DNA of 63,295 nucleotides, counting the filler, from Reticulomyxa filosa (Eukaryota; Protista; Foraminifera): NCBI GenBank assembly GCA_000512085.1. It is 24 parts of 24 records of this genome, joined end to end, with 100 filler letters (N's around TTAATTAATTAA, not from the genome) between each part and the next. Parts side by side here need not be neighbours in the genome. Positions count along the whole stretch, not along the records: positions 16,427 to 18,930 come from ASPP01001194.1; positions 19,031 to 20,429 come from ASPP01038677.1; positions 20,530 to 24,069 come from ASPP01000222.1; positions 24,170 to 28,809 come from ASPP01025170.1; positions 28,910 to 29,958 come from ASPP01024621.1; positions 30,059 to 31,391 come from ASPP01020885.1; positions 31,492 to 32,678 come from ASPP01023809.1; positions 32,779 to 34,455 come from ASPP01013020.1; 16 more parts are not named here. One strand, 5' to 3'. The notes under the pieces are model-generated. The model saw only the letters and a list, made by a program, of their open reading frames with translations, did not search any database and had not been told where the DNA came from. Positions 17,830-55,505 of this stretch are shown here, piece after piece (within the stretch, counting starts at the first letter, position 1; each line of letters begins with the position of its first letter). A program made the position numbers and the translations under genes.

Positions 17830-18930
17830 TCAAAAATCAATTATAAACTTTCCAATGTATTTCATAACAATTTTATCAAGATCATCGGTCCATCCTAATT
17901 TTATTTTTGAAGCTTGAATCCAATATTGAGTAATAAACTTCATTTCCTTTTTTGACTGCTCATTGTTTGTTATTTGTTAATCAGTTTTATATAACATAAT
18001 TTATTTGTATTCATCAAAATAAATAAATAATAAATAAACAAATCATTACCAACTGTAAAGGACCCCATGCACGCACTTTAGTCTTCATGTGAGTTAATAC
18101 TTTTGTATCTTCATCATCGATTCCTCCAATAATGTGAACATTATTGTCTTCTTCATTCAATATTGCAACACAGTTATTTAGTGGATTGGATAAACTGTTT
18201 TGAAATGTCGTCCATGTATTTTCTTGGATTAAATACTTGTGCACTGATTTTGAAATATTAGTGTAATTTGATCCACCAAAGAACAAAATGACGTCATTAA
18301 TATACGTATATGCATATTGATAGAATGGTGCAATATCTTTACAAACATATAGTTGACGAAATTTAAAAATGTTGTTGTCTCCATCATATTCAATTGATAA
18401 TCCTGTATTCCAACAAAACAACAGCATTTGATAATTTTGTTTATATTTTTGATTTGCTTTCATCATTTCTTGTACTTGTCCATTTTCTAGTTTTGATACA
18501 AAGCAATGATACCATATATTATTATCAGTTGGTAAAGTATCGTGTTTAATAAATTGAAATGTATTTAAATCAAACACACTAATATTATTTTTAAGATAAG
18601 TAATAAATAACAAATAATTGTTAATTCCACCAACCAATGCACGCACTCCTTCATAATTATCTTGATCTCTTCCAATGATAATTGGATTATTGTGATTGTC
18701 TGTGAAAGGGACCCATTGATTGTAATTGTTTGATTTGTTTAATTCATTTAATTTATTCGTTTCATTTTCATTCTCATTTTCATTGTCATCATCATTACGC
18801 CAAACATTTACATATTTCATCACCAATGTATGTCTTTTTATATATTTATTTCCACCAAAAGACAATAAAGTAATTTGATTTCTGTTTTTGTCTTTGTTAC
18901 TGTTGCTATCTACCAGTTTCACTACACAGT
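17830..18930 (-). CDS. Kelch-repeat protein, 5'-partial; last exon 17955-17830 encodes the 33-aa 'GW' module
   Basis: LLSFGG, ILFFGG, VHIIGG, HCFV and NTWT Kelch motifs; intron 18049-17956 (TTG|GTAATG ... CAG|TCA). Confidence 0.85.
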
Positions 18931-19030
18931 NNNNNNNNNNNNNNNNNNNNNNNNNNNNNNNNNNNNNNNNNNNNTTAATTAATTAANNNNNNNNNNNNNN
19001 NNNNNNNNNNNNNNNNNNNNNNNNNNNNNN

Positions 19031-19140
19031 TATTTGATACCAAGTCTCACACCCACTTACTAATTTTTGAATCCAACTTTCTTGTATTGTTCTCATTGCT
19101 TTTGTAAAGACAATTCTTTAACCATTTTAGCATAATCGGC
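19031..19140 (-). pseudogene. DUSP-family paralogue, copy 2, degenerate 5' end
   Basis: Clear nucleotide similarity to 3901-4010. Upstream 19150-19495 is similar to 5641-5996. Confidence 0.7.
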
Positions 19141-19799
19141 TAGTCACTTTCACTTTAACAAACATTTCACAAGTATTTAAGAAAACTGCAACCAGGACAG
19201 CAATTTACAAGATTATGAGAAGAGATTAGGAGTAAATTTTCACATTTCGGTGAAAATTTCCATATTGCAGTAAGACTGCGGACCTTGGGGGTTCTTCTTA
19301 AAAAAAAGGAAGAGGAAAAGTCCAACTTCCTTTAGATTAAGAAGAAATTTAAAATTTTTGGTAAGCAATTAGTTCCTTACCGATCTGATTTTAAATTTTA
19401 AAAATTTTATTAATGTGTAACAAAATGTAGTTGCACTTATTCATTCAATTTATTTTATTCTTGCAAATAATTTGTACTATTTTCACACTTTTTAACTTTA
19501 AAGAAAAATTATTTATTTATTTGTTGATTCATATTTCAAGTAATTTTTGATTATATATGAAAGTTTGTGTGAAAGTTGCAAGTAAAAAATTATGTTAAGT
19601 ATGATATGCTTTTGAGGATATAATTTTAATATTATTTCTTCTTGCAAAAAAAAATTCAATTATTCAATATATTTTAGCTAGAACTACTTCAAAAAAAAAT
19701 TACAAATAACAATTAATTAAAAAAAATTATTCATTTCAATCAAAAATAAAATAAAAAGAGCTTTCAAATAAAATCATTACAAAACAACATTCAATAACT

Positions 19800-20415
19800 T
19801 TTCAATCACAGTTTTTTTGGATTTCTAATGGTTTCGCAAGGCTACTTCCGTTTTTAAATGCTTTCCATATATTATGCATTCAAAGTCTTGTTCGCTCAAC
19901 ATTCTATCATTCTCCTTTCTTTCAAAGTCTCTTTCAAGCTATTTGTTATTTTTATTTCACATTGAGTATTCTGTTGCATCCCAACTATCAACGCCCAATG
20001 AAACATAAAATAAAGTAAATAAGTCAATCCACTCTCTTTTTTTTTTTCCTTACCCTAACGAAACATCTGCTCATTTCGAATCTGTTGCAAGTTATTGATC
20101 TGTAATGGCTTTGCTGCCATTTCATGTGCGTATTTATGTAGCCTTAGATCCCTTTGTTTTACAAACGCGACCAATCGTATTACATTTTGCTCCCACTCGT
20201 TTCGAGCCAACAACTTCAAGTGGTCCACGTCGACGTTGCTGGTGCCCTTCACATATACTGCCAAACCCCTCCCAAAAGTCGTAGAATTTTTGCACAAACA
20301 AGTAGCTCGATGCGATGTGTCCAAACCTCGGAATTTGTTTTGTCTCGTGTTCTTCCAATTCCGCTATTTTCATAAATGTTGCGTTGTATACCTTTCCATC
20401 GTCAACACACATGAC
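19800..20415 (-). pseudogene. 3' part of another probable family member, frameshifted
   Basis: Exon-like blocks. The 3' flank 19725-19815 resembles the 3' flank 2845-2942 of DUSP copy 1. Confidence 0.4.
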
Positions 20416-20769
20416 AATTTTTTTTTTTTNNNNNNNNNNNNNNNNNNNNNNNNNNNNNNNNNNNNNNNNNNNNTTAATTAATTAANNNNNNNNNNNNNNN
20501 NNNNNNNNNNNNNNNNNNNNNNNNNNNNNTTGGGGGTTTTTTTTTTGCATGGTTCATAAATGATTATGATTATTTCAAGCTTTTTCATGAAACAGTACAA
20601 GCTTTGGCTTGACGTCCAGCCTCCAAAACAAAGCATAAGATCATTAGGATCCTCATACATTTACAAATAAAGTCAAGAAGACACCAAAGCCCATCAAACG
20701 TAGTGTAAAAAAGAAATATCTACACACACTACTTTGCCATTAGTTTGTTTACAATTATAGTTATCAAGA

Positions 20770-21401
20770 TTGCAATTTTATTCATGAAAAATTAAAAATT
20801 TTTCAAAATCTTTTTTTAAATGATATATAGACATCATGTAGAATCTAAAAATGTCTTTTATTTTTAATAAAAGTGTAGAAAACCATACAAAAATCGTTGC
20901 TGTTTTTGTTCTTTTTTAAAATTGTAAAAAAGTTGAATATTCGTTATTGCATTAAAAGTAAAAAACATTACACGATTGTTGTTTTCTAGGACGTCCGCTA
21001 CCAACTTTATGCCATTCAAAATTATTTTTTTCAGCCGCTTAAGCGCATTCTCAATTGTAGAAACAGAGATCCATTAATATGGCAATGCGCTTAGCAAGAC
21101 AACGTCTTTTGTAAGCTTTAATTTTACCAAGCTGGGAAGATGTAAAATGCTTTCACATTGTTTTCACAAAATTCAGCAAAAAAAAAAGTGTTAAAGACAA
21201 AACAAAGCTTCAAAAAACTTAAAAGACTAACTAAAAAAAGGATTAACAAATTCAAAAAATGAACAAAAACATTAACGGTTTTTGCATGATTTTCTACACT
21301 TTTATTAAAAACCAAAGACATTTTTAGATTCTACATTATGTCCAGATATCATTTAAAAAAAAGATTGAAAAAATTTTAATTTTTCATGAATAAAATTGCA
21401 A
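20770..21401. mobile_element. MITE/fold-back-like element with about 155-bp terminal inverted repeats
   Basis: 20770-20925 (TTGCAATTTTATTCATGAAAAATTAAAA...) is the near-perfect reverse complement of about 21246-21401. Inner AAGCGCATT/AATGCGCTT pair; non-coding. Confidence 0.75.
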
Positions 21402-21701
21402 ATGTTTATAGGTGTGAAATTTGTCGTTTCAAAAAAAAAAATCTAAATGGAGTACAAATCAATTCAATTTATTAAACAATATATTTTCAATGGCTTGCAG
21501 TAAAAAATACTTGGTATGAAAGCATTGTTCTTTTCTTTTCTTGGCCCTTAAGTGATATCATTCTTTTGGATTAGGACATCAACTTGCTGTTTTAAAGTGG
21601 TTTGGGGACACTTACTGCAAACTAAAAAAACTCGTCACACTAAAAGTTTGGAAAAAGAGTTTTTCGTTCTAAAATTTCTTGGTACTTTTTTCTGGTGAAT
21701 C

Positions 21702-22557
21702 ATGGAAGCAGTTTTGAAGGATATTCGTAGTGCAATTGTTGACACAATATCAAGGAAATGTAAACTAGACTTTCCAGCAGAGCTCGCCTTGGTTATAGAA
21801 TCATTTGCGAATCAATGGATAAAGTTTGAAGATTACGAGCCAGGGAAGTGTGTTGAAACACAAGATATCGGACAAATTCCTCTCAACTTCACATTAGTGG
21901 GATGGATCCGACCTAACAAAGATTGTCCGAAGAAAGTGCAGATGATTGCCACAAAGGATGAATGTTGCGTAGGAACAAATCAGTTCCGGTTCCAAATACA
22001 TGCAGACAAGCATGTTGCTTTTTTTGCTAGCGGTGGACCAGATGGATATGATGGATCGAAAGATTTGTTAGTTGCAACTGCGTGTGTATATTTGTTTGTT
22101 TGTTAATATATAAATACAATAATTTAAAAAAAAAAAAAAAAAAAAATGAATAAATAAAATCAGTGAGAAGATAGCCGTGTCTTTAGACGACAATAGATGG
22201 TTTTCGAAATTGACAACAGCAGACCCTCTGGAACCAGAGATATGGACAAATATAGCGCTGCGACAAAAATATGACGAAAAGAGAGATAGAATGGAGTGGG
22301 ACATATTTGTGGACGGACAAAAAAATGTCACACTTTTTTCGTCTGTGGGCGATGCAAAACCTTCACATAATAATCAGGTTACTTTTCGAATTGGAACACG
22401 ACACCAAGGTCTTCATGGAAGTGGAGGTAATTGGCAAGGAAAAAATAATGACTTACATGACCCTTTTTACGGAGACTTGAAACGTTTTTTTTGGTGTGAC
22501 AATGCTTTGTCTGATCAACAAATTGCCACTGCCAGTCGTCGAATTTCATTCGACTGA
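21702..22557 (+). CDS. LamG/concanavalin A-like domain protein, 2 exons, with an F-box-like N-terminal helix
   Basis: 'NFTLVGWIRP', 'WTNIAL', 'IFVDG', 'FRIG', 'PFYGDLKRFFWCDNALSDQQI'; N-terminal 'FPAELALVIESF'; intron about 22069-22161. Confidence 0.75.
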
Positions 22558-22722
22558 CCATAGCAATAAAAAATAAATGTATTTTTTTTTTTTTTTTTGT
22601 TTTTTTGTTTTTTGTTGCTGAATGATTCTGCCTCGTTTGCTTTTTTTTAATTGTTCATTTTTTTAAAGTTTCCAATGATCGAAATTAAAATACTTTTTTA
22701 TATTAAAAAAAAACAAGAATTA

Positions 22723-24030
22723 CTATTGCAACAAGTCTTGTGCCATTTCCAAAGACCCATTGTTGGGAAAAGGAGTCATATCGCACAATATTTTGCACAC
22801 CAATTCATAGACATGCAAGTTTTGCATTTGTGGTTTGGTGTAATTTTTTTTGAATGAGGGACCTCTTGCAGCGAAAAATCCGCTCATTTGTTCGTCAGTG
22901 TTGTTCCACCCATGAGTTCCTTTCGAAGTATACGCCCAAGTTTGCCTCTTTTTTTTTTTTAAAAAAAAAAAGAGGGCAATCAAAGAAAGCACAAACAATT
23001 AGTTGCATGCATCGCACGCACATATGAACAAATATATTAAATAAAAATATACAAAAATACGTATACAACCGTGCATGTAAAAACGAAAAAGCAAGAAAAT
23101 CTAACTAAACCGAGTTGGAGATGTCAGACCAAACAAAATTCCACTCTATTTGAGTGACAGCAAAAATATCTGGAACACGTTGATGATATCCAGGAATGGA
23201 GTATTGCCATTGCGAGGGGATATCATCTCGTTTCCAGATTTGGAAGAGCGATCGTTGTTGGGAAGAGACAAGACTGGAGACGAACCGATTGACCAATAGT
23301 TTACGGTAATATTGTACGATTCATTCAAGTGTTTTAAATAAAAGCAGAACAAAGGAGAATACGAAGCAATATAAAAATCGTCTTGCGCAGTGTCGAAAGG
23401 ATTGAACACCGTCGTATTCATTTCAATCAGTTGTGTGTCCGATACTCCAGCCATGCCATGGTCTGACAATAGCAACACATCTGTTGTTTCACTTAAGTTG
23501 TATTTGTCCATTTCACTAAGCAAGTAGCCAATATATCCATCCATCATTTGCACTGCATTTGCCGTCTATACATATATATGTGTACATATATAAATATATA
23601 TGTATACATATATACACATATATATATTAATAAAAAACTTGAGTAGAAAAGGGACCATATCCATGGCCAGTTGAATCTGGCTCTTCAAAGTACAACATAA
23701 GCAATTGATATTGCTTGGTGTTCATCAGGTCGATAATCTTGTCAATTCGTTGAGTGAATGGATACGACTCATCGTAAGGCATGTACCAATCGGGATATCC
23801 ACGGCCCGAGCAATTGTGTGCACTTCCTACCCAGAACATCACTGCCGATTTCAGCCCAAGCTTCTCATTGCCATTGTGATGCACTGTGCTCCACAGAGGC
23901 GTACCACGATACCATACGCCTTTCGTGTCCGCCACACCGCCATTGAAATAGGCATTCAATTCACGGTCGTAAAACGAGTTCAATACTATTCCGTGGGATG
24001 TCGGATACAAGCCAGTGGCAACACTAACAA
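22723..24030 (-). CDS. Nucleotide pyrophosphatase/phosphodiesterase (ENPP, alkaline phosphatase superfamily), 5'-partial, multi-exon
   Basis: 'TGLYPTSHGIVLN', 'LYFEEPDSTGHGYGP', 'LLSDHGM', 'GTHGWNN', 'FAARGPSFK', 'PNNGS'. Confidence 0.93.
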
Positions 24031-24190
24031 ATTATTATTTATTACTATTTTTTTTTTTTTTTTTTTTTTNNNNNNNNNNNNNNNNNNNNNNNNNNNNNNN
24101 NNNNNNNNNNNNNTTAATTAATTAANNNNNNNNNNNNNNNNNNNNNNNNNNNNNNNNNNNNNNNNNNNNTTTTTTTTTTTTTTTTTTAAC

Positions 24191-24790
24191 CTTTTTGAAT
24201 GCAAAAACAAGCAGCAAAGCCAGCATCCAAATCCCACATATACACACTGGAAACACCACCCTCAAAATATGCATGTCGATAATGATCAAACACTTCATTT
24301 GCCTATACATAATTTTAAATAATAAAAAAGTTCATTTAGAACACATTTCAAAATCTTTTTTTTTTAATAGTATACGTAAAAAAAAAGGGTATCAAACATA
24401 AAATAATATTCTATTAACTTCCAATTCTAATTTTCTCAAGTTCTCTGAAGGTCTCAAACATTCGTCACCATCTTCAATTGACGGAAAATATTCGTTTGAC
24501 CAAGGGCTTCGATAGGAATCTCCATCGCGGTTATAATCACATGTTATAAATTGTTTTCCTGTCTTGGTGTCTTTTTCCTAAATTTTCAAGATTTCAAACG
24601 CATAATTAATATTTACTAAAATAAAACATTTGAACTCTTTTTTACATACAATTTGCAACGGGGTATCAACGCGCTGGCACAATTCCTCGTCTAATTCCGG
24701 TCGAACAGCGATCAATCTCTCCAAATTGTCTACAACGTCACTTGGAGGAGTTCTCCTTAAAATATTAAGACAATGCTTAATATCGCTCAT
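24191..24790 (-). CDS. CAPZB: F-actin capping protein beta subunit, first 3 exons
   Basis: 'LNILRRTPP', 'RVDTPL' | '[18 protein letters not shown]', 'LRKLE' | '[24 protein letters not shown]'. Confidence 0.95.
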
Positions 24791-25751
24791 TTTTTGTGTA
24801 AGAAAACTGCTGTGGTGGCAAAGAAAAACAAAACAAAAAGTTTTTCTTTCTCAAAGGTAGAACACTTAAAAAAAGTTTTCGAACTCGAACTTAAAAAAGT
24901 ATAAGCGTAACAGTAAAAATTGAATATCTTTTCTTTTGACTGTCATTAATAACAAGCTTTGTTAATATTTGATTATCGATTAGTATTCTTTAATTGATTT
25001 CATTAGTAAACAAATCCAAAGCAACTCCATTCAATGTAATCAGTTTTTTTTTTTGCAAGTACTCAGAAACACGATTAGCGTGACAAAAAAGAGGAAAACG
25101 TAGTTGCTACTTTTAGAGATCTTTTTTTTACGTATTAAAAAGAATAATAACGTGTGAAAAGAATAATTGGTATAAACATATCTGTAGACATTTTCTATCA
25201 TGCGGCATTAGCTATGGCATTGAAGTTCATTTATATTATTTTATGAAAATATTCACTTTTACCATCATACTGAACTGTTATCGGTTTGTATTTTCATAGA
25301 AAAAAGTAATTTAGTGTGTTTTGTTAATTTTCTTGTGCGATTCAAATTTGTTATGTTGTTTTTTTCTATTTTCATCATAAGTATATTAACATATAATGAA
25401 ATAAGATTGATACTTAATGAAGCAAATATGTTTTTTTTGGCGTACATTCAATCATTTAGTAACAATTGACAAATTTACTTGACAAACTGATTGCAATGTT
25501 ACAATATCATGATAATTTGCTAGGACAACGTTAAAGTATTGGACGTCATAATTAGAAGCTTTGCAATATTAAATATAATCAAAGAATATAAGCATTGACA
25601 TACTTTTTTTTGAAAATTATGACAATAAAAAAAAAAATGCAACTGAACAATATTCTTAGACCATTGGAAACGAAATTAATAAAAAAGTTTATTTTAAAAA
25701 GTTGTCTTTTGCACTTAAATAGAATTTTAAAAAATTAATTACATTGATTTC

Positions 25752-30299: not shown

Positions 30300-30355
<56 letters not shown>

Positions 30356-31491: not shown

Positions 31492-32678
31492 CCAAAATAG
31501 TTATATAAATTAGCAACATCAGGATGATCAGGTCCCAATTTATTCAATAAAATTTTTAAACATTTTTCACAATATTCAATTGCTTTGTCATATTCTGCTT
31601 TGTTACGATACGCTTTGCTCAGATAGAAATAAGAATACGCAACATCGACATGAAAATCATGTAATGTTTGCAATCTAACACAAAGTGCAAAACGAAATAA
31701 TAGAATTGCCTCATTGACTTTTGAGATATCTAATGCATTTTCTCCCAATTCCATTAAATTTTCTATATCAATAGGCCAAGAACAAGTAAAAACATGAGAA
31801 TAGAAACGATAACGAATAATAGATTGATTAGTAGTGATAAGTTGTTGAGTAATATGACAATTTCCAAATCCATCAATAATACAATCAACAACATAAACAG
31901 ATCCATCAATTATAATATTATCAAATGTGATATTTTTTGAATAAAATGAAGAAACAGAATATGGTCCAATTATTAATTTTTTTTTCATATATTCATTTGA
32001 ATTGATCATCATTGAAAAAGGAATATTTTGTTGTTGATATAATTTATCATTTGATTTTATTAATTGTTCAATATTTGTTGCTACAACAACAATTCCTTGT
32101 TGCTTATTATTAATCATTTCATTTACCATTTTATGTGCTTGTTCATTTGCTTTATTCCATGAATTATTTTTATCAATTTCAGTAATATAAAGAAAGATAT
32201 GTTTATTGCAAGTTGTAGTAATTTGAATAATCTGTTTATCTAATATTTTTTGTTTAACTAATATAATATTATCATTTAATGATTTTAATGATTTTAATAA
32301 TTTAATATTTTGTGACATTACATTACAAAAACATTCAGCAAAATAACTTTCTTTATTTGATTTTAATTTTTCATTAATTGTTGAAGATATTATAAAAGTA
32401 TCTAATCCATAATTATGATATTGTTGATTATTATATCCATTTATTTGATATACATTTTTAATATATATTTTAGGTTTATTTAAAAATGAAAATAATTCTT
32501 GTATTTTATTAAATGGTTTATATCTATTATCATCTGATGTTATTAATATATCTCCTTTTTCTGATATTGTATTAATATAACCACACCATACAAATATTAA
32601 TGAATCATAATTATTTTTATTTTTGTTTTTATGATATTTCATTAAAAATTCATTTAATTGATTTAATGTTAATGATTC
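31492..32678 (-). CDS. Caspase-like (apparently inactive) domain + TPR repeats, partial
   Basis: 'YDSLIFVWCGY...ILITSD...FLNKPKIYIKNVY' (cf. ILSHG...KPKLFIIQACRG); 'HVDVAYSY...AEYDKAIEYCEKCLKILLNKLGPDHPDVANLY' (kinesin-light-chain-type TPR). Confidence 0.65.
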
Positions 32679-35881: not shown

Positions 35882-37158
35882 ATGTCATCACCGCAAATTT
35901 ACGAAGTAGACTTTCAGGAGGAATGAAAGAAGAAAATTGCAATAGATCGAAAAATGAATCACCTAATCCTCCTCACTTGGTAATATTTGAATAGAAAAAA
36001 TATTTTTTTTTTTAGATGGATTGGATGTTTTTAAAATTTGGTAATTACATTGCTTGACAAAAAAAAAAAAAGAGAAGATATTGCAAATAAAAATTGATAG
36101 ACAGAAAAAGAAATCAAAATGATTGTTGAGAGCTGGCTTCGGATGGCGCATGTTTATTGGGGATGGATTGATGAATTCTTTCTAATAATTGGAAAATATG
36201 TTGGGTGATTGGTTTTCTTGTCATTTTTGTTTGCTCAATTTCAAATGATCTACAATATGTTTGTAACGCATTTTTAACAGGCCAAATATTTCAGAGAATT
36301 GAAGATATTTCAAGGTCATTCCAATCGTGTTACTTGTGCTCAATTTTCACCAGATGGTCAAACTATCGTATCATCTTCCAATGATCAAACAATTCGGTTA
36401 TGGGATGTAATATCGGGCCGGGAAATTCAAAAATTTGAAGGGTTGGGGTGGATATATGGAGTACAATTTTCACCAGATGGTTGTACCATTGTGTCATATT
36501 CGGAGGATGCTGCAATTCGAATATGGGATTTGAAATCTGGCTCAGAAGTTTCAAAATTGGAAGGCCATTCGGCAGTTGTAACAAAGCTCAATTTTCACCA
36601 GATGGACATGCGATTGTGTCATCTTCCTATGACAAGACTATTCGGATATGGGATTTGACAGCAGGAAAATTAGTTCGGACATTGAAAGGACATTTCAATG
36701 TTGTAACGGGGGCACAATTTTCACCAAATAGTCGGACCATTGTCTCTTCGTCATGGGACAAAACAATTCGATTGTGGGATGTGGAATCAGGAAAAGAGTT
36801 ACAAAAATTAGAGGGACATCCGACTTGGGTAAGAGGGGCACAATTTTCACCAAATGGTCGTATTGTTGTATCTTTTTCTTTTGAAACAATTCGATTATGG
36901 GATGTGGCATCAGGACGAGAAATACAAAAATTAGAAGGACATTCAGACATTGTTACTGGAGCACAATTTTTACCGGATAGTTCCACTGTTGTTTCGTGCT
37001 CAGTTGACAAAACCATCAGAATATGGGATGTAACATCAGGACAAGAAATACAAAAACTGGAAGGTCATTCAAAAGTTGTAACTGGATTGGATGTTACTCC
37101 GGATGGTGACACCATAGTGTCATCTTCAGATGATTTCACAATTCGATTGTGGGGATAG
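35882..37158 (+). CDS. WD40-repeat protein with N-terminal 'GW' module exon (36101-36199); frameshift near 36580, possibly a pseudogene
   Basis: Seven highly similar GH...FSPDG..IVSSS.DKTIRLWD repeats; phase-0 introns flank the 99-bp exon. Confidence 0.88.
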
Positions 37159-37575: not shown

Positions 37576-38791
37576 TCATGCTTCATCCTCCGGTCGTAAG
37601 TTTTTTGCAACAGGTAACAAAAACAACCTTGTAGCTTCTTGAATGTAGCTTCGTAATAGTTTGACGTTGGGTTTTGATAACTCATTTGCCCAAAGATGTT
37701 CTTTCGAGAAATCCGAAAATACATCGTGCACGAAAAGTCCACTAATTTTGGGGAAGTTGACCAAAGACATCTGTGAGACATAATTTCAAACAAAACAAAA
37801 AAAGGCTGTTTAAATTATAAGAAAAAAAAAAGAGTGAAAAAAAACCGACCTCTCCAACTTTGGACGTGACGGAATTCAAACGATTTGCATTAAAAAACGA
37901 GTCCAAGTGCGTAAAGAATTGATCCGAGAGAATCTGATGTTGAGAAAAGATGGATTGAAATTTGGTGGCAATATCACTTCGGAGTTGTTTCAAATTATCA
38001 TCACCGGTTTTCCAATTGATAGTAACTTTTTTTTTTTGGGTGCAGTTTGATCATCGCTGCGATGTTTATTATTCTTTGCACCCATTGCACAGTTTTCAGC
38101 AAAAGCTTCGCATTTGAATTTTAATAACACGTGGCTTCCTAGCAAGCGTCGTAAGACGACACCTTCAGCGATAGTACCAGATGTGGGTTGCAGCGGCAAT
38201 TTTAATTGCTGAGGGATCGTGGAAACCAAGTGATCGACATCTACACTATCCAGCAAGTGTTGTAAAGTCCCTTTGAACAAAGGCTTCGGAAAAGCGTCAA
38301 ATTGTCCAGCATGTTCGAAAATGTGAAGACATTGTGAAAATGTCAGAAAACGTTTGCCATAGCGACGAACGGGTTTAGAAGGATCGGTGGAAGAGGATGG
38401 AATGGAGCCAGTGATAGTAGTGCCCGTGGAAGGGGCAGTGAATACAATACGAATATCAAAAGGGAAAAAATGATGATAAGGAGAATAACTCACTCCAATT
38501 TGGACGGCTTTATATTTTTTAGAGGTCACTACTCTCAAAAATTCCTCTCGTTTCTCTTTTCTTAATTCATCACGTGCCGGTGGATTGACAGTGTCACTGT
38601 CACGTTCGTAGCCAAAATTACCACCAAACAATTCTCCATACACTAATACAGCAACGCAATTGGGCTCTATATTTTGTTTGATGTACTCATAGCATTTGTT
38701 CACTCTGATTTTTCTTTTGCCATTACATCTCTCCATCCACTGTAATAGGAATCTTCATCATTTAATAAGCCATTTCGTCTATTTTTTATTT

Positions 38792-38825
<34 letters not shown>

Positions 38826-39804
38826 CTATATACATATATGTACATGCTCACCTAGCTGCAACAAAGTTTGTACCATCTGTCAAAATAGTGAAATTGGTGC
38901 CGTGCACTTTTTCACATGCCACCCATTCGACATCAGGTTCTGCGTGCCCATGTGCAATGAGATCATTTACCTCACGTTTGTTAAAGTGATTTTCAATGCT
39001 GGGGTACATGTTCCAAAATGATTTCAAAAGATCGATTCCTTCCAATTCTTTCGTTTCTATTTCTTCCTCAGTTTCTTCCGTATCTGCTTGTTTCGCCGTT
39101 GTGTGCTGTTCTGGCTTGTCCTTTTCGTCTCGAAACACCAAAATCTGTATTTGTTTATTTTTTTCCCTCTCACATTGTAACTTGAGTTCCCGTTGGATGG
39201 AAAAAAAAAAAAAAGGTAGTAGTAAACTTTTGGAATCGGATCAATGGCTCCAATCTTTATCCAGCCTGTAGAAGGAGGGAATACACTATCGTAAGGGTCG
39301 TGGGCTAGATACAGCACAGTAGTGCATGCGACAGTGGCAGAAGCCTCTTCAAGAATCACCCAAGAATGCTCGAAGCCAAATATCGATTTTATTTCGCTAT
39401 ACGTTTTGTCATTTGGCTGCGCTTTTTTAATTCGAATATGTGCCGTTCCTTGTGGAAATATTCAAACAATGTATCTTGTTTAGTTTCATATAGTCCGATC
39501 ACTCTTCCAATCCCAGCGGCTACAATTTCTGCTTTCATTGCTAATCCATTAATTTCCTTAGAAAATAATTCGGAATTTTCTTTTCTTCGCCATTCCAAAC
39601 ATTTTTTATATTGTGCCAATGGATGACTTTTGCAATTGTCCACCAGGGAATTGCATTCTTTTGCCGTTGTTGTATGTGTACGTGTGTTTTTTGCTGAGTT
39701 CTCAAAACATACCGACACACAAATTCCTTGTTCAACAAAAACAAAAAAAAAGTTTTCCGACCTTTACAATACATCTGCATCGTGTATCCGAAGAATTCAG
39801 GCAC
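37576..39804 (-). CDS. Rnl2/REL-family ATP-dependent RNA ligase with N-terminal extension, about 7 exons
   Basis: Motif I 'WVACEKVHGTNF', III 'VYGELFGG', IIIa 'FFPFDI', IV 'AEGVVLR', V 'LLKFKCEAFAE'; Rnl2 C-terminal domain 'NRLNSVTSKVGE...FPKISGLFVHDVFSDF'. Confidence 0.88.
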
Positions 39805-40214: not shown

Positions 40215-42554
40215 TTATGCCCACAAATGAATAGCTCCATTGTACGATCCAGAACACAAAATATAATCATGACAGTCATCTTCATTTCGGTTATTCTGTT
40301 TATTACTTTGCAATACCGAGCATTGAAGAGAAATAATTCCGCAATCTTTATCATTCCCTTTGATAACATAAAATTGTCGATGGGTTCGAACATCCCAAAA
40401 GCGGATGGTGTTGTCTCTTGCAGCAGAACATATAAGATCTGAATTATTTTGAAAAGGTAAGTACTCGATACAATACACACAGCCAGTGTGTCCCTTGAAA
40501 ATATGAGTTTCCTCCTTCATTCGAGCATCCCACAAACGAATAGTTTTGTCATTTGACCCAGAGCATATTATTTCACTTCGTGGATATTTTACACTCCTCA
40601 CAAAGCCCGAATGGCCTTGAAAGACGGCCAATTCTTTGGCAGTTTCAACGTCCCATAAACGAACAGTATTGTCACATGCCCCAGAGCAAATGGAATATCC
40701 ACTGCCACCAATTACGCCCGGATCCTTATTACGATTGCATTCACTCTGCAATGGTGAAAATTCAACACACCAAACGCTGTTGGAATGTCTATCGAGAGCA
40801 TACAACGACTTGCAAGTTTCAATATCCCAAAGACGAATTGTATTGTCCGCTGATCCAGAACATAAGAATTGACCACCACGGAACGGTGAAAATTGGAAAC
40901 CACAGACACCATTTGAATGTCCATTCAAAATCTGTGTCTGTTTGCCAGTTTCAATATTCCAAAAGCGAATGGTTGAATCCCATGAACTAGAACAAATGGA
41001 TTTCCAATAATATGATGAAAATTTTACACAAAACACGGTACTTGAATGTCCTGTAAAGACTTGAATTTGTTCGGCTGTATCCACATCCCACAATCGAACT
41101 GTCATATCAGTTGATCCAGAGCAAAGAAGATGTCTTCCATCCAAGAACGAATATTCAATACCATACACCATGCTCGAGTGTCCATTGAATGATTTAAATG
41201 CACTGGGAGAATGTGGCAAACTAAATGTGTTTTTAGAGATTTGAAAACAAAAAGGAGGCAATTTAGATACATTATTTATTGCCTCTTTTTCTTCTTCTTT
41301 TTCATCACTTTTGATTTTTTGCAACTGCTCTCTATTTTCGTTAGCAGATGAACTGCTTGCTCCTTCCAATCCTTCCTCCCCCAAACTATCTTCTACTATT
41401 TCAATATCCGCATAACATTTCAGCAATTCTGCCTCATTATCTTGTTGGATCCTTTTCATTTCATTTTCTTTCTCCAAGAGCTGTCGCTCCTTCAGCTGAA
41501 TATCTTTCTGATTTTGTTCTATTTCTGTTCTCATAAGTTGAATTTGTTTATCTTTTGTATGCATTTGTTGGATACTCTTTTCGAGTAACTGCTTCAATTC
41601 TTCCATTTCAGTATTGACACTGTGCTATCTTATTTATACAATATATACATATATATATACATATATATACATATATATATGTATATTTTTTATGAGATAT
41701 ATCTAGTTTCAAAGCAAAAAATACCTGAAAAAAATTGGTCTTGTAAAACTGTTGCTCACATTGTTGTAATTGCTGTTTCAATTGATAGTTTTCTTTTTCC
41801 TTTCTTACATTAAGCTGCAATTCTGATTTTAATTTCTCATTTTCCAACTGCAACTGTCCCACTTGGCTCTGGTTTATTTTTATTTGTATTGTCTTTTTTA
41901 TTTATTATGGCTTTGTTATGTTGGAGATAACAACGGCCAAACTTGATATTGTTGGATAATGTGTTGCAAAGATTCGATAAATTTCGTGGCCAATTCAAAA
42001 TGCAATTTCAAATTGGAAATCAAATGCTCCTGCAATTTGTTTTCGTGACATAAATGATCACATCCAAATGGTTTAAACCAACAATCAAATAACCTCAAAG
42101 GACATGCATTCTCTAAATGGTCGGGCACCTCTCTTATCTTTCCTTTAAAATTACACATCACAGCTTTTACTATTTTTCCTTCATGTCGTCGGGTTACTAT
42201 TTGCGAATTTTGTTCAAATTGTCGTGGACATATCACACACAATTCTCCTATTTGTCGTTGCGCGAGTTTGCTTTTCGAATACAAACAATCTTCGTGGCTG
42301 TCGACTGGGCAAACATTGCGATTGTCACAGAGATATTTCCGCAAACAAGTTTCTCCAACAATCAATAATTCATCAGCATTTTCGTGCTGAAGGCAGTCCA
42401 GTTCCATCGCATTGTTTGCAACTTGTTCACAAATTAAACAAATAAAGTTGCCAATTTGTTCTTTTTGGTTTGATTGCAAAATCCAGTTTTTATCCAAGCA
42501 AGAACGCATGACAACTGCATTTGGTCTTGATTCCTTATTTTTTTCATCGTCCAT
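40215..42554 (-). CDS. RING-like/TRAF-type Zn-finger + coiled coil + WD40 protein (TRAF7-like architecture), about 3 exons
   Basis: 'FICLICEQVANNAMELDC..H...GETCL...CPVDSH', 'VICPRQF', 'CNFKGKI...HLENACPL', 'CWFKPFGC'; WD40 repeats 40215-41200. Confidence 0.88.
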
Positions 42555-42769
42555 GGCTTTTTAGAAGTATTTTTTAAAAACCTAGTTCAGAACGTGTCTT
42601 GACACTACAAGGTAAATCGAAACATATTGCCAACAGAAAAATCTGACAAGAAGCACCGTCGTAGTGGGTNNNNNNNNNNNNNNNNNNNNNNNNNNNNNNN
42701 NNNNNNNNNNNNNTTAATTAATTAANNNNNNNNNNNNNNNNNNNNNNNNNNNNNNNNNNNNNNNNNNNN

Positions 42770-44394: not shown

Positions 44395-44426
<32 letters not shown>

Positions 44427-44558: not shown

Positions 44559-44608
<50 letters not shown>

Positions 44609-44619
44609 AACACCAAACA

Positions 44620-47104: not shown

Positions 47105-48708
47105 GGTATCAGTAATAAGCACAGTTCATATACCTTGCTTGCTTGGCATATACATATATAANNNNNNNNNNNNNNNNNNNNNNNNNNNNNNNNNNNNNNN
47201 NNNNNTTAATTAATTAANNNNNNNNNNNNNNNNNNNNNNNNNNNNNNNNNNNNNNNNNNNNTTGGATACCATTGAATGAATTAATAAATTATTGTAATAA
47301 ACAGACCAGTGGATGGTGTTACTAATATCATCAATCAAAACGGAATTATGGTAATGAAGGTATTGCATATCCTTGTTCGAATAACAATGCTTTACAAAAT
47401 TTAAATAATGAAAATTCATACAATGGTCATTACATTGTTCTTCATAAAGCAGTACAATCAGGAATTGATTATGAAACACAAAAACGACAAAAATAATAAA
47501 GAGTAATGAACATATGTAAATGGATATTAAAACAACGAGCCATATATCTAATGAAGAAAATTGAATATGCAATGGATTATGTGAAAGATAAATTGGTTGA
47601 TGAAAGATGGTATTATCAAATTCATTGATGAAGAGAGCTATGAAACATTATTGCAAGAAGGGCGACTTTCTTATTGATAGTGAGTCAGAATGGTTTGAAA
47701 GAGCATTAATCAAGTAATTTGTTGTATTGGATAGCAAGTAGAAATGTAATGACTATAGTAGCTGAAACTACAAATAAAAAAAGATTTGATGAAGAATGGG
47801 TTTTTTGACCATTTGGTCAGTTACATAAGGACATCAAATTGCGAGTCCAAATGATTCATTTGAGACTTTTGTTGTCTTTTATTTTAAGTTAAGTTATTGA
47901 TGTTTCTAAGATTCAAATATTTTTGCAAAATTCAATTAATTACTTTGATCACAAAAATACTCTCTCCTTTCATGAGCAATTGGATAATAATATCTCGCTT
48001 TTGATTTGTAAATTTTTTAGTGTATATGTTCATCTGATTGCAGTCAAAAATCTGCATATCCTTGCTTAAGAACATTTATGGAAATTAACATTGTTGTATC
48101 TTCTTCTACTTCTTGTTTTCTTGATTTTTTCAATATCGATATGACACCAGCACAACTTGTTCCCATAATGTGTTTCTTGAAATATTCAAATAAAATGACA
48201 TAAATAGCTTTTCCTTTGGATTGGTTATAAACAAATTGTTTTGTTGTAAGGAAGAGAGATGTGTATGATTGAACTCTATTTTTAATGAAATATGAAAATT
48301 GAATTGAAATTGTTAACATCAAAGGAATAATCATAAATATGAACACTTATTCAAATATCTTACAATTTATTCTGAAAAGTATTTCTGCTTACACAGATTT
48401 AATACAAAATTCAAAAATAAGTAACATTGTATTGCTTATTTTTTAATTGTTGTTATTGATCATTGTGATGCAAAGATATTTTACAAAATGTAACATTTAT
48501 CTTTCATTTCAAAATGTTTCTTGTGTACACATTAGTTCAGCTTTTCCTTTCTTAAATAAAAGTTCAACCATTTTTTTCACTTGCATCATCAAAAAACATA
48601 TCAAGAANNNNNNNNNNNNNNNNNNNNNNNNNNNNNNNNNNNNNNNNNNNNTTAATTAATTAANNNNNNNNNNNNNNNNNNNNNNNNNNNNNNNNNNNNN
48701 NNNNNNNG

Positions 48709-48807
48709 ACGCGTGTCGTCACCGCGATGGCCGCCAACCTGCAGTCCAAGGTCGAGTACGACACCGGCGTCGAAGGCACCCGTGCCAGCCTGCGGTTTAG
48801 GCTGTAG
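48709..48807 (+). CDS. Bacterial sensor histidine kinase C-terminus (end of HATPase domain)
   Basis: TRVVTAMAANLQSKVEYDTGVEGTRASLRFRL* resembles the post-G2-box end of HWE/HisKA_2 kinases. Confidence 0.55.
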   Translation, partial: TRVVTAMAANLQSKVEYDTGVEGTRASLRFRL

Positions 48808-48838
48808 GGTCTTTCCGGGTCCGATAGCATCACCACCA

Positions 48839-48946
48839 AACCTCATGCTGAGGAGCGCTTCGTAGAAGCGCGTCTCGAAGCATGGGAACGAGCACCGCGC
48901 CTGTTGCCCATCCTTCGAGACGCGCCCCGAGGCGGCGGCTCCTCAG
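48839..48946. repeat. Alphaproteobacterial REP-like palindromic element, interrupted by the IS and completed at 50472-50485
   Basis: AACCTCATGCTGAGGAGC...GCGCGTCTCGAAGCATG / CATCCTTCGAGACGCGC...GCTCCTCAG|GGTGAGGTT; lies between convergent genes. Confidence 0.8.
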
Positions 48947-50471
48947 AACCTGTGAATCTTTGTCTTTCGGATGCGCGCCGGGGATGATTCCATCGAAGCG
49001 AATTTGGTGGAGGTGTTGATGCCGGAGAAGGATCTGTTCGAAGGCCTTCCGGAGCAGTCGGTGGCGAAGGCCGAGCCCGGCTCGGGCAAGCCGCGGATGC
49101 GCGAACCGGAGCGGCGGCAGGTTGAACTTCGGGCGGTGGACCTCGACAGCCTTCTGTCGGCGGATCATCCGGCGCGTGTGATCTGGGGTTATGTCGAGCG
49201 GCTGGACCTGAAGGTGCTGGAGGACGCGATCGGGGCCCGCGAGCACACGCCGGGGCAGGCTCCGGCGAGCCCGCGCCTTCTGCTGGCGCTGTGGCTCTAT
49301 GCGACGAGCCAGGGCGTGGGCAGCGCGCGGGCGCTGGAGCGGCTGTGCGCGAGCCACGATGGGTATCGGTGGCTGTGCGGCGGGGTGAGCGTGAACTATC
49401 ACGGCCTGGCCGACTTCCGCAGCGGTCATGGCGAACTGCTGGACCGGCTTCTGACGCACAACATCGCGGCGCTCATGGCGGACGATCGGATCGAGCTTGC
49501 CGAGGTGGTGCAGGACGGGGTCCGGGTGCGGGCCGGCGCGGGAGCGTCTTCGTTCCGCCGCCGGCAGAGCCTGCACAAGCACCTGAAGAAGGCGCGCCGG
49601 CTGGTCGAGTACCTGAAGCGGGAGATCGACGAGGACCCCGACGCCAGCAACCGGCGCATCAAGGCGGCCCAGGAGCGGGCCGCGCGCGAGCGCGAGGAGC
49701 GCGTGGCGGCCGCGCTCGACAAGCTGGCCGAGATCGAGGCCGAGCGGGAGCGGCGCGGCAAGACCAACAAGAAGCAGGTGGCCGGGCAGAAGGAGCCTCG
49801 CGCCTCGACCACCGATCCTCAGGCGCGCGTCATGAAGATGGCGGATGGCGGCTTCCGGCCGGCCTACAACTGCCAGATCGGCACGGTGGCCGAAGGCCAG
49901 ATCGTGGTCGACGTCGCCATCGACACCACGGGTTCGGACCGCGGCCTGCTGCGGCCCATGCTGGAGCGGCTGAAAGAGCGCTATCAACGGCAGCCCCGGC
50001 GCCATCTGGTCGATGGGGGCTTCCACAAGAACGAGGATACGGAGGAGGCGTTCGAGCAGGGTGTGTTGATCTACGGACCGACCACCCGGAACAAGCACAA
50101 GAGCGACCCCTATGCGCCGCGGCCCAAGGACGGCCCCGGCGTTGCCGCCTGGCGCCGGCGCATGCGGAGCCCGCACGGCAAGGGCGTCTACAAACGACGG
50201 GCGATGGGCGAGTGCATCAACGCCCGCTTCCGGCAGTGGGGCCTGCGCCAGTTCACCGTGCGCGGCGTTCACAAGGTCAAAACCGTCCTGCTCTGGTTCG
50301 CCCTCGCCAACAACATCATCGCCGGCCATCGCCTCAGGACAGCCAACGCATGACCAGGCCGTTGCGGGACCTGCACGGCTATGGCCGCCAAACCCGCCCG
50401 TGGCGACAAGGCCCAGCGCACCATCCCGCGCGAACCCAAACCCGAGAGCTTGCCGAATACGCTCACAAGCT
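48947..50471 (+). mobile_element. IS1182-family insertion sequence (about 1525 bp)
   Basis: Imperfect IRs AACCTGTGA / TCACAAGCT; flanking direct repeat CTCAG at 48942-48946 and 50472-50476; single transposase ORF. Confidence 0.88.
49019..50353 (+). CDS. IS1182-family DDE transposase
   Basis: GGAGG RBS at 49009; 'DHPARVI', 'PRLLLALWLYA', 'SARALER', 'QDGVRVRA', 'STTDPQARVMK', 'YNCQ', 'LVDGGF', 'YKRR..GECINARFR'. Confidence 0.93.
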   Translation: MPEKDLFEGLPEQSVAKAEPGSGKPRMREPERRQVELRAVDLDSLLSADHPARVIWGYVERLDLKVLEDAIGAREHTPGQAPASPRLLLALWLYATSQGVGSARALERLCASHDGYRWLCGGVSVNYHGLADFRSGHGELLDRLLTHNIAALMADDRIELAEVVQDGVRVRAGAGASSFRRRQSLHKHLKKARRLVEYLKREIDEDPDASNRRIKAAQERAAREREERVAAALDKLAEIEAERERRGKTNKKQVAGQKEPRASTTDPQARVMKMADGGFRPAYNCQIGTVAEGQIVVDVAIDTTGSDRGLLRPMLERLKERYQRQPRRHLVDGGFHKNEDTEEAFEQGVLIYGPTTRNKHKSDPYAPRPKDGPGVAAWRRRMRSPHGKGVYKRRAMGECINARFRQWGLRQFTVRGVHKVKTVLLWFALANNIIAGHRLRTANA

Positions 50472-50515
50472 CTCAGGGTGAGGTTAGTGCCTGAATCGAT
50501 TCAATTCAGTTCCGG

Positions 50516-50798
50516 TCAGCCCATCACCCAGCGCGGCAGGCCCAGCGCGATGTCGGGGAAGGCCATGAGGAGCAGGATCAGGCCCAGCATCGAGGCCACG
50601 AACGGCAGGGCGCCGCGGATCACGTCGGCGATGGCGCCGGTCCCGCGCAGGCTCTGCACGACGTAGAGGTTGAGGCCGACCGGTGGCGTCACCAGCGCCG
50701 CCTCGATCAGGATGGTCAGCACGATCCCCCACCAGATCGGATCCCAGCCCAGCCCGACCACGATCGGGAACACGAACGGCGTCGTGAGGATCATCATG
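50516..50798 (-). CDS. dctM: TRAP transporter large permease C-terminus
   Basis: 'GWDPIWWGI', 'TPPVGLNLYVV', 'RGALPF', 'FPDIALGLP'. Confidence 0.92.
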
Positions 50799-51998
50799 NN
50801 NNNNNNNNNNNNNNNNNNNNNNNNNNNNNNNNNNNNNNNNNNTTAATTAATTAANNNNNNNNNNNNNNNNNNNNNNNNNNNNNNNNNNNNNNNNNNNNGG
50901 GATAATTTACTGTTTTGTCGAATAAGAAATGAAAGTTTGATTAAAAGAAAAATAAGCTGATATTAAACTTGTTTGATTTGATTAAATGCAAGAATTGAAG
51001 GATGTATTTTATCACTTTGTTGTTTAAATTGAAAAGTATAATAATAAAAATTATATGATTAAGACTATTTTGAAAAGCGAATGTTTTTTAAACTATAGTA
51101 GATTTCACAAAAAAACTGCCATATCTAAATGACATATATGTAAAGAGAATTCATTTTTTTCATGAAAAATAAATACTTAAACATAATTTTTTAAAAAATA
51201 TCTACAAATATTGTAAAGTGTGAAACTGCAAAAGATAATTTAATATTATGTGCAATTCATACTTTGCTTATTATATGATTGTGGAATCAAAGAAAAAACT
51301 CTTTATTTTGTCATCGTGATTTATTTCAATATACTTGATGGACAAACACTTTTATTTTGTATTTATCTAATTGTGATTATTGTCATAACAGTGCATGTAT
51401 AACGCATTTCTTGATTGTCATAGTTGATCCAACATCATATTCTCTCCTCTTATCATGTTTAATTAATAAAAAATTGTCAGTATTCTTGCTTTCTTGATGC
51501 ACAATCAGTAATGGTTTGGGTAAAATTTGATGGATCAACGTACATTTATTGATCAAAGGAACTGTACTCACTTTATTATCTTGCTTTTTCTTAAATTTAT
51601 CATTGAAAAAATTCGATATTTCAAATTTTTAATAATATCCAATGTTTTTCGCAATAGAAAACATATATATATATATATATGATGAATTACTACAAACAAA
51701 AAAAAACAATACTTGCAATTTTTTTGATTTTCACTTATTATGCTTAACTCTTTAAAAAACATTGAACGTAATTTTTTGAATATTTTTAAACAACAAAGTA
51801 AGATAAAACGTATTTTTTAATACTTGCATTCAATCAATCAAACAAGTTTAACATCACATTAATTTTCTTAATCAAAAAAAAACACTTTCATTTTTTATNN
51901 NNNNNNNNNNNNNNNNNNNNNNNNNNNNNNNNNNNNNNNNNNTTAATTAATTAANNNNNNNNNNNNNNNNNNNNNNNNNNNNNNNNNNNNNNNNNNNN

Positions 51999-52453
51999 TG
52001 ATAAACTTGTGTTATAAAGATGCGTCGTGCACGCAAATGTATGATCCTACCGTACAATGTCCTCCAAACAGTCAATATAATGGCACCTTGTGCTTCGATC
52101 AAGAAACATGTGGCGTCACTAGCGCTTACGATTGCCAGTTTAGCACTGCGCCATACTCGTGCTCACCTTCCGACTTGTCTGGAAAATATGGCACAGGTGC
52201 TGCAAACACATCGCTGGCTGTGGCTGGATGGGATGACTTGATGGTTCCTTTGTCCCAATTGAAGACAAAATACTTTGCCTTTTATTGCACTGACACTTGG
52301 AAAACCGCTAAATGTGAGTCTTGGACTGTGGCCACGTATACAACAACTTCTACTTCTGCTCCTTCTCCTTCCTCAACTCCTGCAAGCTCTGCATCAACTG
52401 TCACTACTCTCGTCTCTGCTTGTCTGGCTGTATTTGCCTTGTTGTGGATTTAA
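51999..52453 (+). CDS. Putative GPI-anchored Cu-SOD-like (SOD5-type fold) surface protein, 5'-partial
   Basis: 'YDPT', 'CSPSDLSGKYG' (cf. C..GDLSGKHG), S/T/P-rich stalk, terminal hydrophobic GPI-type signal. Confidence 0.55.
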
Positions 52454-52964
52454 AACAATTTGTTTGTTTGTTTTGAGAAAAGGATTAAGAAAGCCCTTCT
52501 TTTTTGTTTTTGTTTTTGTTTTTGAGTTGTGTTAAGTTAGAAACAAAAATGCACAACCATACTAGCACTGCCAAGTGTCTTTCTTTTCTCCTTTATCATT
52601 GCTATTTGTTGTTTACTTTTTGTTTTCTCATAGAGATTTTACTCTTTGTATTTCTTTTTTTTTTGACAAAATCGTCTGCTCCTACAAGTCAAACAATTAA
52701 ATGTTACTAAGATGTGTCACAGTATATTTGTTGTTTGCTTTTATATCACGCAAAAAAAAAAAAAAGTATTTAGCTCACTGTTGTTTATTCAAAAATCACT
52801 GATAACAGATCGGAAAGGGTGATTAGCTTATCTAAAAAAATAAATTAATAATTCATTTAGTATGGCTTGAATTTTAATTTAAACGTGTACAAAAACTGCT
52901 TCATTATTAAAACTAGTTTTTTTTGGACTGTTTTGCTACTCAAAAGTAAAACTAGTTTTTGTGA

Positions 52965-53592
52965 AAGTACCTTTTTTTAGAAGTGTACTTAGAAAGCTCA
53001 GAAGACCAAAACACGAAGGTGTGATGATCGGAACGTCACAAAAGGATGCCTATGTTGGAGATGAGGCACAAAGTAAGAGGTATTTTGCAATTAAATATCA
53101 TATTGAATACTGTACAGTCACCAGTTGGGACGATGTGGAGAAAATGTTTTGTTTTACATCGAGTTGAGGACATTAAGGAAAAATTAGCTTATGTTGTCGA
53201 AGATTACCACGCAGGATTGAAGAAAGTTGAAACATCGAATGATATTGAGAAAAACTACGAATTGACTGACGGACAAGTTATCATCATTGGCGCTGAACGA
53301 TTCAGACGCACTAAGGTATTGTTATCACCAACTTATTGGAAAGGAAGCGAGGGAATCCATAAATTGGCTTACAAAAATATCATGAAATGTGATTTGGACA
53401 TATGCCGAGATTTGTACACAACAATTGTTGTCTGGAGATAAGACTATGTTAAATAGCATTGATGTCCGTTTAAATAAGGAAATGACTACTGCCAGCATCA
53501 GAGTAAAAATTGTTGCTCTAATGAAAGAAAATACAGTATCTAGATTGTGTAAATCATTTTGGCAGCTTGTCTATGAAATCGTTTGGCTATGA
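52965..53592 (+). pseudogene. ACT: Actin pseudogene with a large internal deletion and frameshifts
   Basis: '[26 protein letters not shown]', 'WDDVEK', then a jump to 'DIKEKLAYV', 'YELTDGQVIIIGAERFR', 'IMKCDLDICRDLY'. Confidence 0.92.
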
Positions 53593-54127
53593 AGCAAAAT
53601 TTTAAAAATACTACACGTTGACATAAAATGAACATCTTAAAAATAAAAACATACTAAAATTTGTTGATTTAAATTTTTTACAATTAACGTAAACTTAGAT
53701 TATGCAAACTACGTTAAAAAAGTAATTAGTCAGATCATAGTTACAATCACATCTTAAACTGTATTTCAGAGAATATTCATTGATAATTTTGGAAATATTT
53801 TCAGTCTACAAAAAATGATGCAAAGTAAACTTTAAAGTTGATAATGACATAGCAAAACTAAAACCGATAAATGTATCATTCATCAACAACAAAAATCTTT
53901 GTTTAAAACCTTTTGGACATGAAACTAACTTGTCATAACATGCACAATCTAAATCCTTTTTTAAAATTGTTCTTTGAAAAGAATAGATATGTTCAATAAT
54001 ATTGTAATATTGTCGAAGTACTTTTGACAACGTATTCATAGCTTTGACATAAAAAAGCTCACGCAATTTTTTTTATCTATCATCCCACATAATCTAAACA
54101 GAGTCCCGAAAGAATGGCCACTTTTTG

Positions 54128-55505
54128 CAATGAAAAACAAACATCAGTACAACAAGAATTGGTATGCTTCATTTCAAGCTTTCTGAAAGAGGTTATCTTT
54201 AAGTTTTATTATACTTATTGTATGTGACTTGATGAATTAGTCAGAAGAAGAAGCCCAAATAATTATTCAACATTGGATTCGAACATTACACATTAGATTA
54301 GGATGGATCCAAGATTTTGACATACTTGTTGGAAACTATGTTATGTTTTTTATTCGAGTTTCGTTCAATATTTTCAAATATTTTTTGCTTTTATTATTTT
54401 TTATACAGGCAACTACATCCTTCATGCTTGAATCGTTTTGTTCAAAGTCTAAATTAATTAAAACATTCATTGGACACATTCGATTTGTAAACAGTATTGA
54501 CTGTTCGACATTTGATAATTGTCAATGTATTTGTTCGGGATCGTATGATAAAACAGTTCGTGTATGGAATATAGAGACCAACGAACAAATTCAATTATTC
54601 AATGGACATTCAAGTTATGTATATTGCGTGAAATTTTCATCATATCATTATCACAATAATCGTAGGAATGTCATTTGTTCTTCATCAGCTGACAAAACGA
54701 TTCGATTTTGGGATATCAAAGATAATCAACAATTCCAAATATTCAATGGACACACAAATGGCGTTAATGGTATTGAATTTTCACCATTTAACAATGGCCG
54801 ATATTTGTGTTCTGGATCTGATGACAAAACAATTTGTCTATGGGATGTTGAAACATCCGAGTCATTACATGTTTTCAATGGACATGAAAATAATGTTTGT
54901 TGTGTGGCTATTTCACCATTGCAAAGCAATAATAGAAATAATAATGATAATAAAAGTAATAGTATTGGAGTGATTGGTGGTAATGGATATAATATTTGTT
55001 CTGGATCAATGGATAAAACCATTCGTATATGGGATATTGAAACAGCTAAGCAATTACTTGATTCAAAGGACATGAACATTGGATTAGCGTTGTAAAATAT
55101 GGATCAAATGAATTAGGAATTAATGGTGGCGCAAATACAATATTATCTGGATCAAATGATTCCAGTGTTCGTCTGTGGGATATTCGATCTGGCCAACAAA
55201 TTCAAGTATTTAATGGACATAAATATTCTGTGTATGTTGTTGAATATTCACCATTTGTAGTAAATAATATTGAAATTGGTGGTAATTCAAATGTGATATG
55301 TTCTGGATCATATGATAACACAATTCGATTTTGGGATATTCGATCAAATAAGAAGCAATTGTATGTAATAAAAGGAGATTATAAAGATGATGGAATATTA
55401 TGTCTTAAATTCTTCCAATTGAAAAAAAACAGAAAAGGCAATAATGATTGTGGTATTAATTTATGCTATGGTTCAAACAATGGCCCAATTCGCATTTGGG
55501 GTTAG
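54128..55505 (+). CDS. WD40 protein with N-terminal 'GW' module exon (54241-54339); frameshift near 55060
   Basis: ICSGS.DKTIR.WD repeats, 'VIGGNGY', 'LCYGSNNGPIRIWG*'; paralogous to the propeller at 40215-41200. Confidence 0.88.

Follow-up and report, generated by a model that had tools for sequence, protein, structure and literature searches.

The window analysed here, 63,295 nucleotides from the freshwater foraminifer Reticulomyxa filosa, is a chain of short contigs with N spacers between them; all coordinates are those of the whole window. Three genes on three separate contigs encode related peptides of 33 residues, placed before a WD40 propeller in two genes and after a Kelch propeller in the third. 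This module is an uncatalogued, constrained motif carried by a very large family of one species. We propose, with a probability of about 0.65, that this amphipathic segment docks the propellers onto one shared protein partner. A shared partner appears most likely because the segment stays constant while the propellers diverge, and because it survives at a free C-terminus. A tentative extension is that the partner would be a cullin adaptor of some kind; DDB1 specifically, the best candidate by size and position, is more doubtful.

Module copies in the window

The three peptides translate exactly from 17857-17955 (minus strand), 36101-36199 and 54241-54339 (both plus strand). Their ungapped pairwise identities are 11/33, 14/33 and 12/33, and the score of each pair was reached by none of 100,000 shuffles. 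A scan of the window with a profile of 271 module copies returned three matches only, which are these copies. The 271 sequences, among them two duplicates and the window's own three copies, were selected with a pattern in which both tryptophans were required (W12, W22 and also G21 belong to it).

All three modules begin in phase 0 right after AG. The donor on their 5' side reads TTG/GTA in each case, and the preceding introns measure 94, 121 and 79 bp. In the two WD40 genes, the module stops at TAT/GT and is therefore a phase 0-0 exon of 99 bp; the next introns are 81 and 69 bp long. Intron phases were checked on the DNA for these three copies, and their splicing is predicted from such signals. 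The public gene model P0347 has identical junctions for the copy at 36101; model P0004 reads straight through both introns of the copy at 54241. What the original prediction had stated about the peptides, donors, phase-0 acceptors and symmetric exons was verified on the DNA.

In the Kelch gene, the module opens the terminal exon. It has no donor on its 3' side and is followed by eight further codons and a stop (17830-17856). TAC/ATT at this place was considered as a decayed GT donor and dropped, as paralogs have a short tail at the same position. A putative 94-bp phase-0 intron (17956-18049, minus strand), whose position is also spliced in paralog models, precedes the module. Upstream lies the Kelch propeller exon (18050-18930, minus strand; Pfam Kelch_1 and Kelch_4), cut by the contig edge where the 5' end of the gene is lost. 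No WD40 remnant was found in the 1.4 kb downstream of this module copy (best tblastn E 0.49).

The copy at 36101 follows a putative 121-bp phase-0 intron (35980-36100, plus strand; junction as in P0347). It belongs to a WD40 gene of subfamily A, whose propeller of regular repeats spans 36281-37158 (plus strand). The copy at 54241 belongs to subfamily B. Its gene would start with a first exon of 16 codons (54114-54161, plus strand), paralogs having similar short N-termini, and its propeller with two WDxR motifs spans 54409-55505 (plus strand). Each of the two WD40 genes contains one frameshift, near 36590 (36586-36595) and near 55060, that is either real or an assembly error.

A large, constrained family in one species

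The module is carried by 299 of 387 fetched proteins, and all named carriers are from R. filosa. At E<=1e-20, 1,092 relatives of the subfamily B protein were retrieved, a count that can include WD40 proteins of other organisms. Among the 120 listed, every one is named R. filosa and 92 carry the module at the N-terminus. For the Kelch exon, the number of relatives is 376; of the 120 listed, 119 are named R. filosa, the remaining one being the window's own, and 60 have a C-terminal module. As 39 of the 60 models lacking it end by reading into the same donor, public annotation probably misses the module exon often. A module profile built from 15 sequences and searched against 1.84 billion representatives retrieved 206 clusters at E<=0.001. 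The best 150 of these 206 were assigned by best match to subfamily B (61), subfamily A (31), Kelch (22), fragments or others (30) and mixed cases (6). All 20 representatives looked up among the 150 are from R. filosa. The expanded repertoire proposed earlier is supported by these counts, as is the idea of more than one partner domain, since the module lies N-terminal to two WD40 subfamilies and at the C-terminal end of the Kelch family.

Known families do not account for this segment. Pfam scans with 3, 15 and 22 module sequences at E<=10 returned no family explaining it, nor did any of the 25 families listed, out of 59, for 80 carrier proteins. Sequence and profile searches of the PDB gave rows at chance level or WD-repeat matches driven by the linker. 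In the ESM Atlas, no usable feature match was obtained and structural look-alikes were unrelated helices. No description of the motif appeared among the listed literature naming R. filosa, though a genome paper of the species or its supplements may describe the expansion. Viral contigs and two giant-virus records contained no module relatives. A scan with a broader two-helix motif gave 15 viral matches, none convincing. Within the window, a two-helix-like peptide at 21699-21830 (plus strand), before an unidentified domain, resembles the module by eye; it was rejected as a relative (HHalign probability 0.4%; score reached by 196 of 1000 shuffles).

The module is better conserved than the propellers. 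Between subfamilies A and B, its identity is 0.52 compared with 0.33 for blades 1-2, and it is the higher of the two in 435 of 449 pairs. When 50 WD40 proteins that all carry the module are aligned, no column is invariant except the W, G and W of the module. Over the 271 copies, R14 (93%), F26 (94%) and G21 are near-invariant, G21 being part of the selection pattern like W12 and W22. The uncorrected proportion of synonymous differences (pS) exceeds that of nonsynonymous differences (pN) in all three window pairs (0.78/0.39, 0.44/0.30 and 0.57/0.35, over about 18 synonymous sites). Module copies from different families share 0.47-0.61 identity, about as much as copies within subfamily A do (0.51).

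AlphaFold predicts one continuous helix for the isolated module. In the model of P0358, the module forms a helix from residue 27 to 61 with predicted local distance difference test (pLDDT) values of 65-78, as compared with about 97 for the blades. A complete seven-bladed propeller of 28 strands starts at residue 67, so that the module supplies no propeller strand in the model. This agrees with the helical, external segment of the original prediction. Fold searches describe the propeller only, which is structurally most similar to regular WD40 proteins of bacterial or designed origin. The module is rich in Trp, Phe, Tyr and Lys/Arg. The hydrophobic moments of its two halves, 0.58 and 0.56, point about 35 degrees apart. 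Their faces are therefore nearly in phase, and both a straight helix and a hairpin are possible; in a straight helix, I18 would lie off the hydrophobic face. The module lies 11 or 21 residues ahead of the first Gly-His of the propeller, with no coiled linker. It is not confined to one domain family, is not part of the propeller in the model and is no known Pfam family; the opposite of each had been named in advance as counting against the original prediction.

Candidate partners and competing explanations

Cullin-ligase receptors are the best-known case of a constant box attached to diverging propellers. Under the reading we favour, the 33-residue segment would dock WD40 and Kelch propellers onto a cullin-ligase adaptor, possibly of the DDB1-Cul4 type, and the propellers would serve as interchangeable substrate receptors. 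The segment would fold on binding, as two helices that meet at the conserved Gly-Trp loop. This tentative identity was reached by fit and exclusion, not by a positive test, and the binding is putative. In PMC6821201, the helix-loop-helix of DCAF1 is described as about 30 residues directly N-terminal to WD40. The module has this DCAF trait: like the H-box receptors of cullin-RING ligase 4 (CRL4)-DDB1, it is about 30 residues long, helical, placed before WD40 and poor in sequence signature. Subfamily B has two WDxR motifs, a weak marker of DCAF proteins (exactly two in 116 of 120 proteins). PMC13061254 states that DDB1-binding helix-loop-helix motifs share very little sequence and offer no usable consensus, which would explain the blank in Pfam. 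According to PMC2785787, DDB1-type ligases are ancient and the elongin type is described as recent and animal/fungal, on a sampling that did not extend to Rhizaria. A cullin is mentioned for R. filosa in PMC11736642; a motif scan for DDB1 returned no sequence.

Several observations weigh against this identification. Among receptors, a box placed C-terminal to Kelch is found more typically in the elongin type. The module matches no DCAF in sequence or structure (PDB searches and the 50 fold matches listed). Modelled with no partner, by itself or within the protein, it is predicted as one continuous helix rather than a helix-loop-helix, with the hydrophobic faces of its halves almost in phase. 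The distribution of WDxR does not follow that of the module: it is absent from 30 of 34 subfamily A proteins and present twice in the RING-like paralog that has no module; the motif is moreover reported in PMC13061254 as making no direct contact with DDB1. The module also differs from DCAF receptors by its C-terminal place on Kelch proteins and its hundreds of copies in one genome. Finally, the frameshift in each of the two window WD40 genes means that some members of the repertoire may be dead.

Large F-box families of plants and nematodes also combine a conserved short box with divergent propellers. The module could be a truncated F-box binding Skp1, or a degenerate BC-box plus cullin box binding Elongin C, as the original prediction had it; we consider this unlikely. 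F-box-WD40 and F-box-Kelch proteins (SCF) resemble our family in their box, their propellers and the very large family size. The module differs from them in that no F-box match is found in Pfam, SOCS_box being equally absent at E<=10 with 3, 15 and 22 sequences, and in that the Kelch chain mostly stops at most four residues after it, so that later F-box helices would not fit. BC-box/Cul2-box and SOCS-box receptors (VHL, KLHDC2/3, SOCS) share the portable short helical box on variable substrate domains, the hydrophobic spacing and the pairing of Kelch with a terminal box; PMC12035522 describes the KLHDC family as Kelch receptors of the elongin type. With I5 as the box leucine, L, I, V or M is found there in 236 of 271 copies and a hydrophobic residue at +8 in 243; the cullin-box positions 26 and 30 are hydrophobic in 271 and 270 copies. 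However, the consensus (S,T,P)LXXX(C,S,A)XXX-hydrophobic, as given in PMC4878042, occurs in none of the 271 copies over all 12 registers, which weakens the case for a SOCS/BC-box. Its sixth position (Cys/Ser/Ala) is found in one copy in the best register. The prolines of the Cul2-box (hydrophobic-P-XX-hydrophobic-XXX-hydrophobic) and of the Cul5-box (LP-hydrophobic-P), as they appear in PMC13061254, are found in 0/271 copies. Unlike these receptors, the module lies mostly N-terminal to WD40. One real SOCS box aligned with it at shuffle level (score reached by 658 of 1000 shuffles), and Cul2 and Cul5 are described as animal-specific in PMC2785787, a study that leaves Rhizaria outside. As a separate observation, one giant-virus bin (G001; L007 and L149) contains both a canonical-looking Elongin C and an open reading frame (ORF) with a SOCS box, either of which could be host DNA.

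LisH occurs with WD40 and Kelch domains. A LisH-like dimerisation motif, pairing the propellers as homo- or heterodimers without any ligase adaptor, is unlikely. The module shares with LisH-WD40 and LisH-Kelch proteins (LIS1, TBL1, muskelin) a helical character, a length of some 33-34 residues and the place before WD40, and the hydrophobic spacing of the first module helix presumably resembles that of LisH. LisH is described in PMC12648486 as an N-terminal dimerisation domain of about 34 residues. Against this, no LisH profile matches 3, 15 or 22 module sequences at E<=10, HMMER filters dropping most weak matches; LisH is absent from the 25 of 59 Pfam families listed for the 80 carriers, and no LisH chain appears in PDB profile searches. 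The spacing to the first Gly-His and the lack of a coiled linker set the module apart as well. Self-pairing would allow each subfamily to drift, yet identity between families approaches that within subfamily A. Targeting of the propellers to a membrane by an amphipathic helix, with no specific protein partner, is quite unlikely. It would suit the continuous predicted helix, its nearly aligned moments and its aromatic and basic composition, together with the Met-Gly-Asn start, a predicted myristoylation start, of 29 of the 107 Met-starting Kelch models (P0125-P0243). Among subfamily B models, 8 of 108 start with Met-Gly. Lipid binding usually needs less strict residue conservation than the near-invariant R14, G21 and F26 and the exact spacing seen here, and a straight helix would leave I18 outside its hydrophobic side. 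Least probable is a passenger exon spread by recent duplication and gene conversion, with a local role (capping, stability) or none. The restriction of named carriers to one species, the many fragmentary models and the two frameshifted window genes fit such an exon, and there is a weak resemblance between residues 27-46 of one copy plus linker and the last part of a WD repeat (no stretch above 1.6 bits). However, introns flanking the module, compared in six pairs, resemble each other no better than shuffled sequences do (the score was reached by 46-413 of 500), so that transfer was not recent. The excess of pS over pN and the retention of the module in Kelch proteins lacking WD40 also argue against it.

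History of the module and implications

Nine of the 150 listed representatives are gene models with the order Kelch-module-WD40. Five have no acidic stretch (P0288, P0318, P0322, P0329, P0365) and four have one before the module (P0244, P0355, P0376, P0383). In three tested models of the first group, the WD40 parts are mostly mutual best matches (67-73%), pointing to a single fusion event. Modules of the tested models are 0.61 identical to terminal Kelch copies and 0.50 to subfamily A, in which module diversity is greatest. The simplest history would place the original home of the module in the N-terminal exon of a WD40 gene, which would have fused to a Kelch gene and then lost its WD40 part. 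On this view the module was kept once WD40 was gone: in 41 of 55 Kelch-family copies, no more than four residues separate it from the chain end. These nine models offer a simpler route to the C-terminal Kelch copy than the free exon shuffling proposed earlier, which is thereby weakened. In a quick Kelch tree (46 of 128 rows; 2 of 43 branches strongly supported), three-part genes occupy basal positions as well as positions within the Kelch-module genes. The tree does not fix the order of events, and given its weak support the module may also have been on Kelch genes before the fusion. Seven Kelch models (P0129, P0136, P0174, P0195, P0216, P0218, P0238) end with an acidic stretch and have no module. 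They may be cut versions of the Kelch-acidic-module-WD40 genes, as their acidic stretch resembles that of the latter. In the partial model P0330, a NACHT-like region runs into the module from its first helix.

The RING-like paralog of subfamily B lies at 40215-42560 (minus strand; Pfam zf-TRAF and WD40). It has a RING-like/zf-TRAF head and a coiled region, and a search of this gene for the module gave no match. Its propeller (40218-41198) is 55% identical over 198 residues and 43% over 151 residues to that at 54409-55505, which upholds the predicted paralogy of 54409-55505 with 40215-41200. In a Pfam scan of the head, zf-TRAF was detected and RING was not. Model P0320 combines a RING-like/TRAF head with the module and WD40. 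Head and module thus do not strictly exclude each other, and the proposed interchange of the module with a RING is weakened. The architecture of the paralog and of P0090 is that of proteins which we take to be TRAF7-like (RING/zf-TRAF/coiled-coil/WD40), except for the RING undetected by Pfam. It is a sister architecture and not the module itself.

Other features of the window were noted. Directly downstream of the subfamily A gene and on the opposite strand, an ORF at 37990-39240 (minus strand) has a weak Pfam RNA_ligase match (E 0.002, below the cut-off). The high-GC contig at 48708-50798 is probably bacterial DNA in the assembly; by eye, its 465-codon ORF (48956-50353) is like a bacterial insertion-sequence transposase. 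Also by eye, a long ORF at 31492-32678 (minus strand) ends in tetratricopeptide-like repeats and an ORF at 3976-5073 (plus strand) resembles S-adenosylhomocysteine hydrolase.

A defence role has no direct support; it would rest on family size, the partial NACHT-module model P0330 and the repeat-rich propellers. In its fullest form, the proposal would be a new class of docking box for ubiquitin ligases, separate from the F-box, the BC-box and the H-box. Such a box would link fast-evolving WD40 and Kelch receptors, several hundred to a thousand in all and the Kelch ones partly myristoylated, to a foraminiferan cullin ligase, in a birth-and-death surveillance of endobionts or viruses. We regard this as fairly unlikely. 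If the module is an adaptor box, a shared function would be named for one of the largest unannotated gene families of the foraminifer, and the 33 residues would provide a bait for finding the partner. A single-celled eukaryote would then possess a receptor repertoire on the scale of plant and nematode F-box proteins, built on a box absent from Pfam. Even if it is not an adaptor box, the module profile is a practical marker for an exon that is probably missed often.

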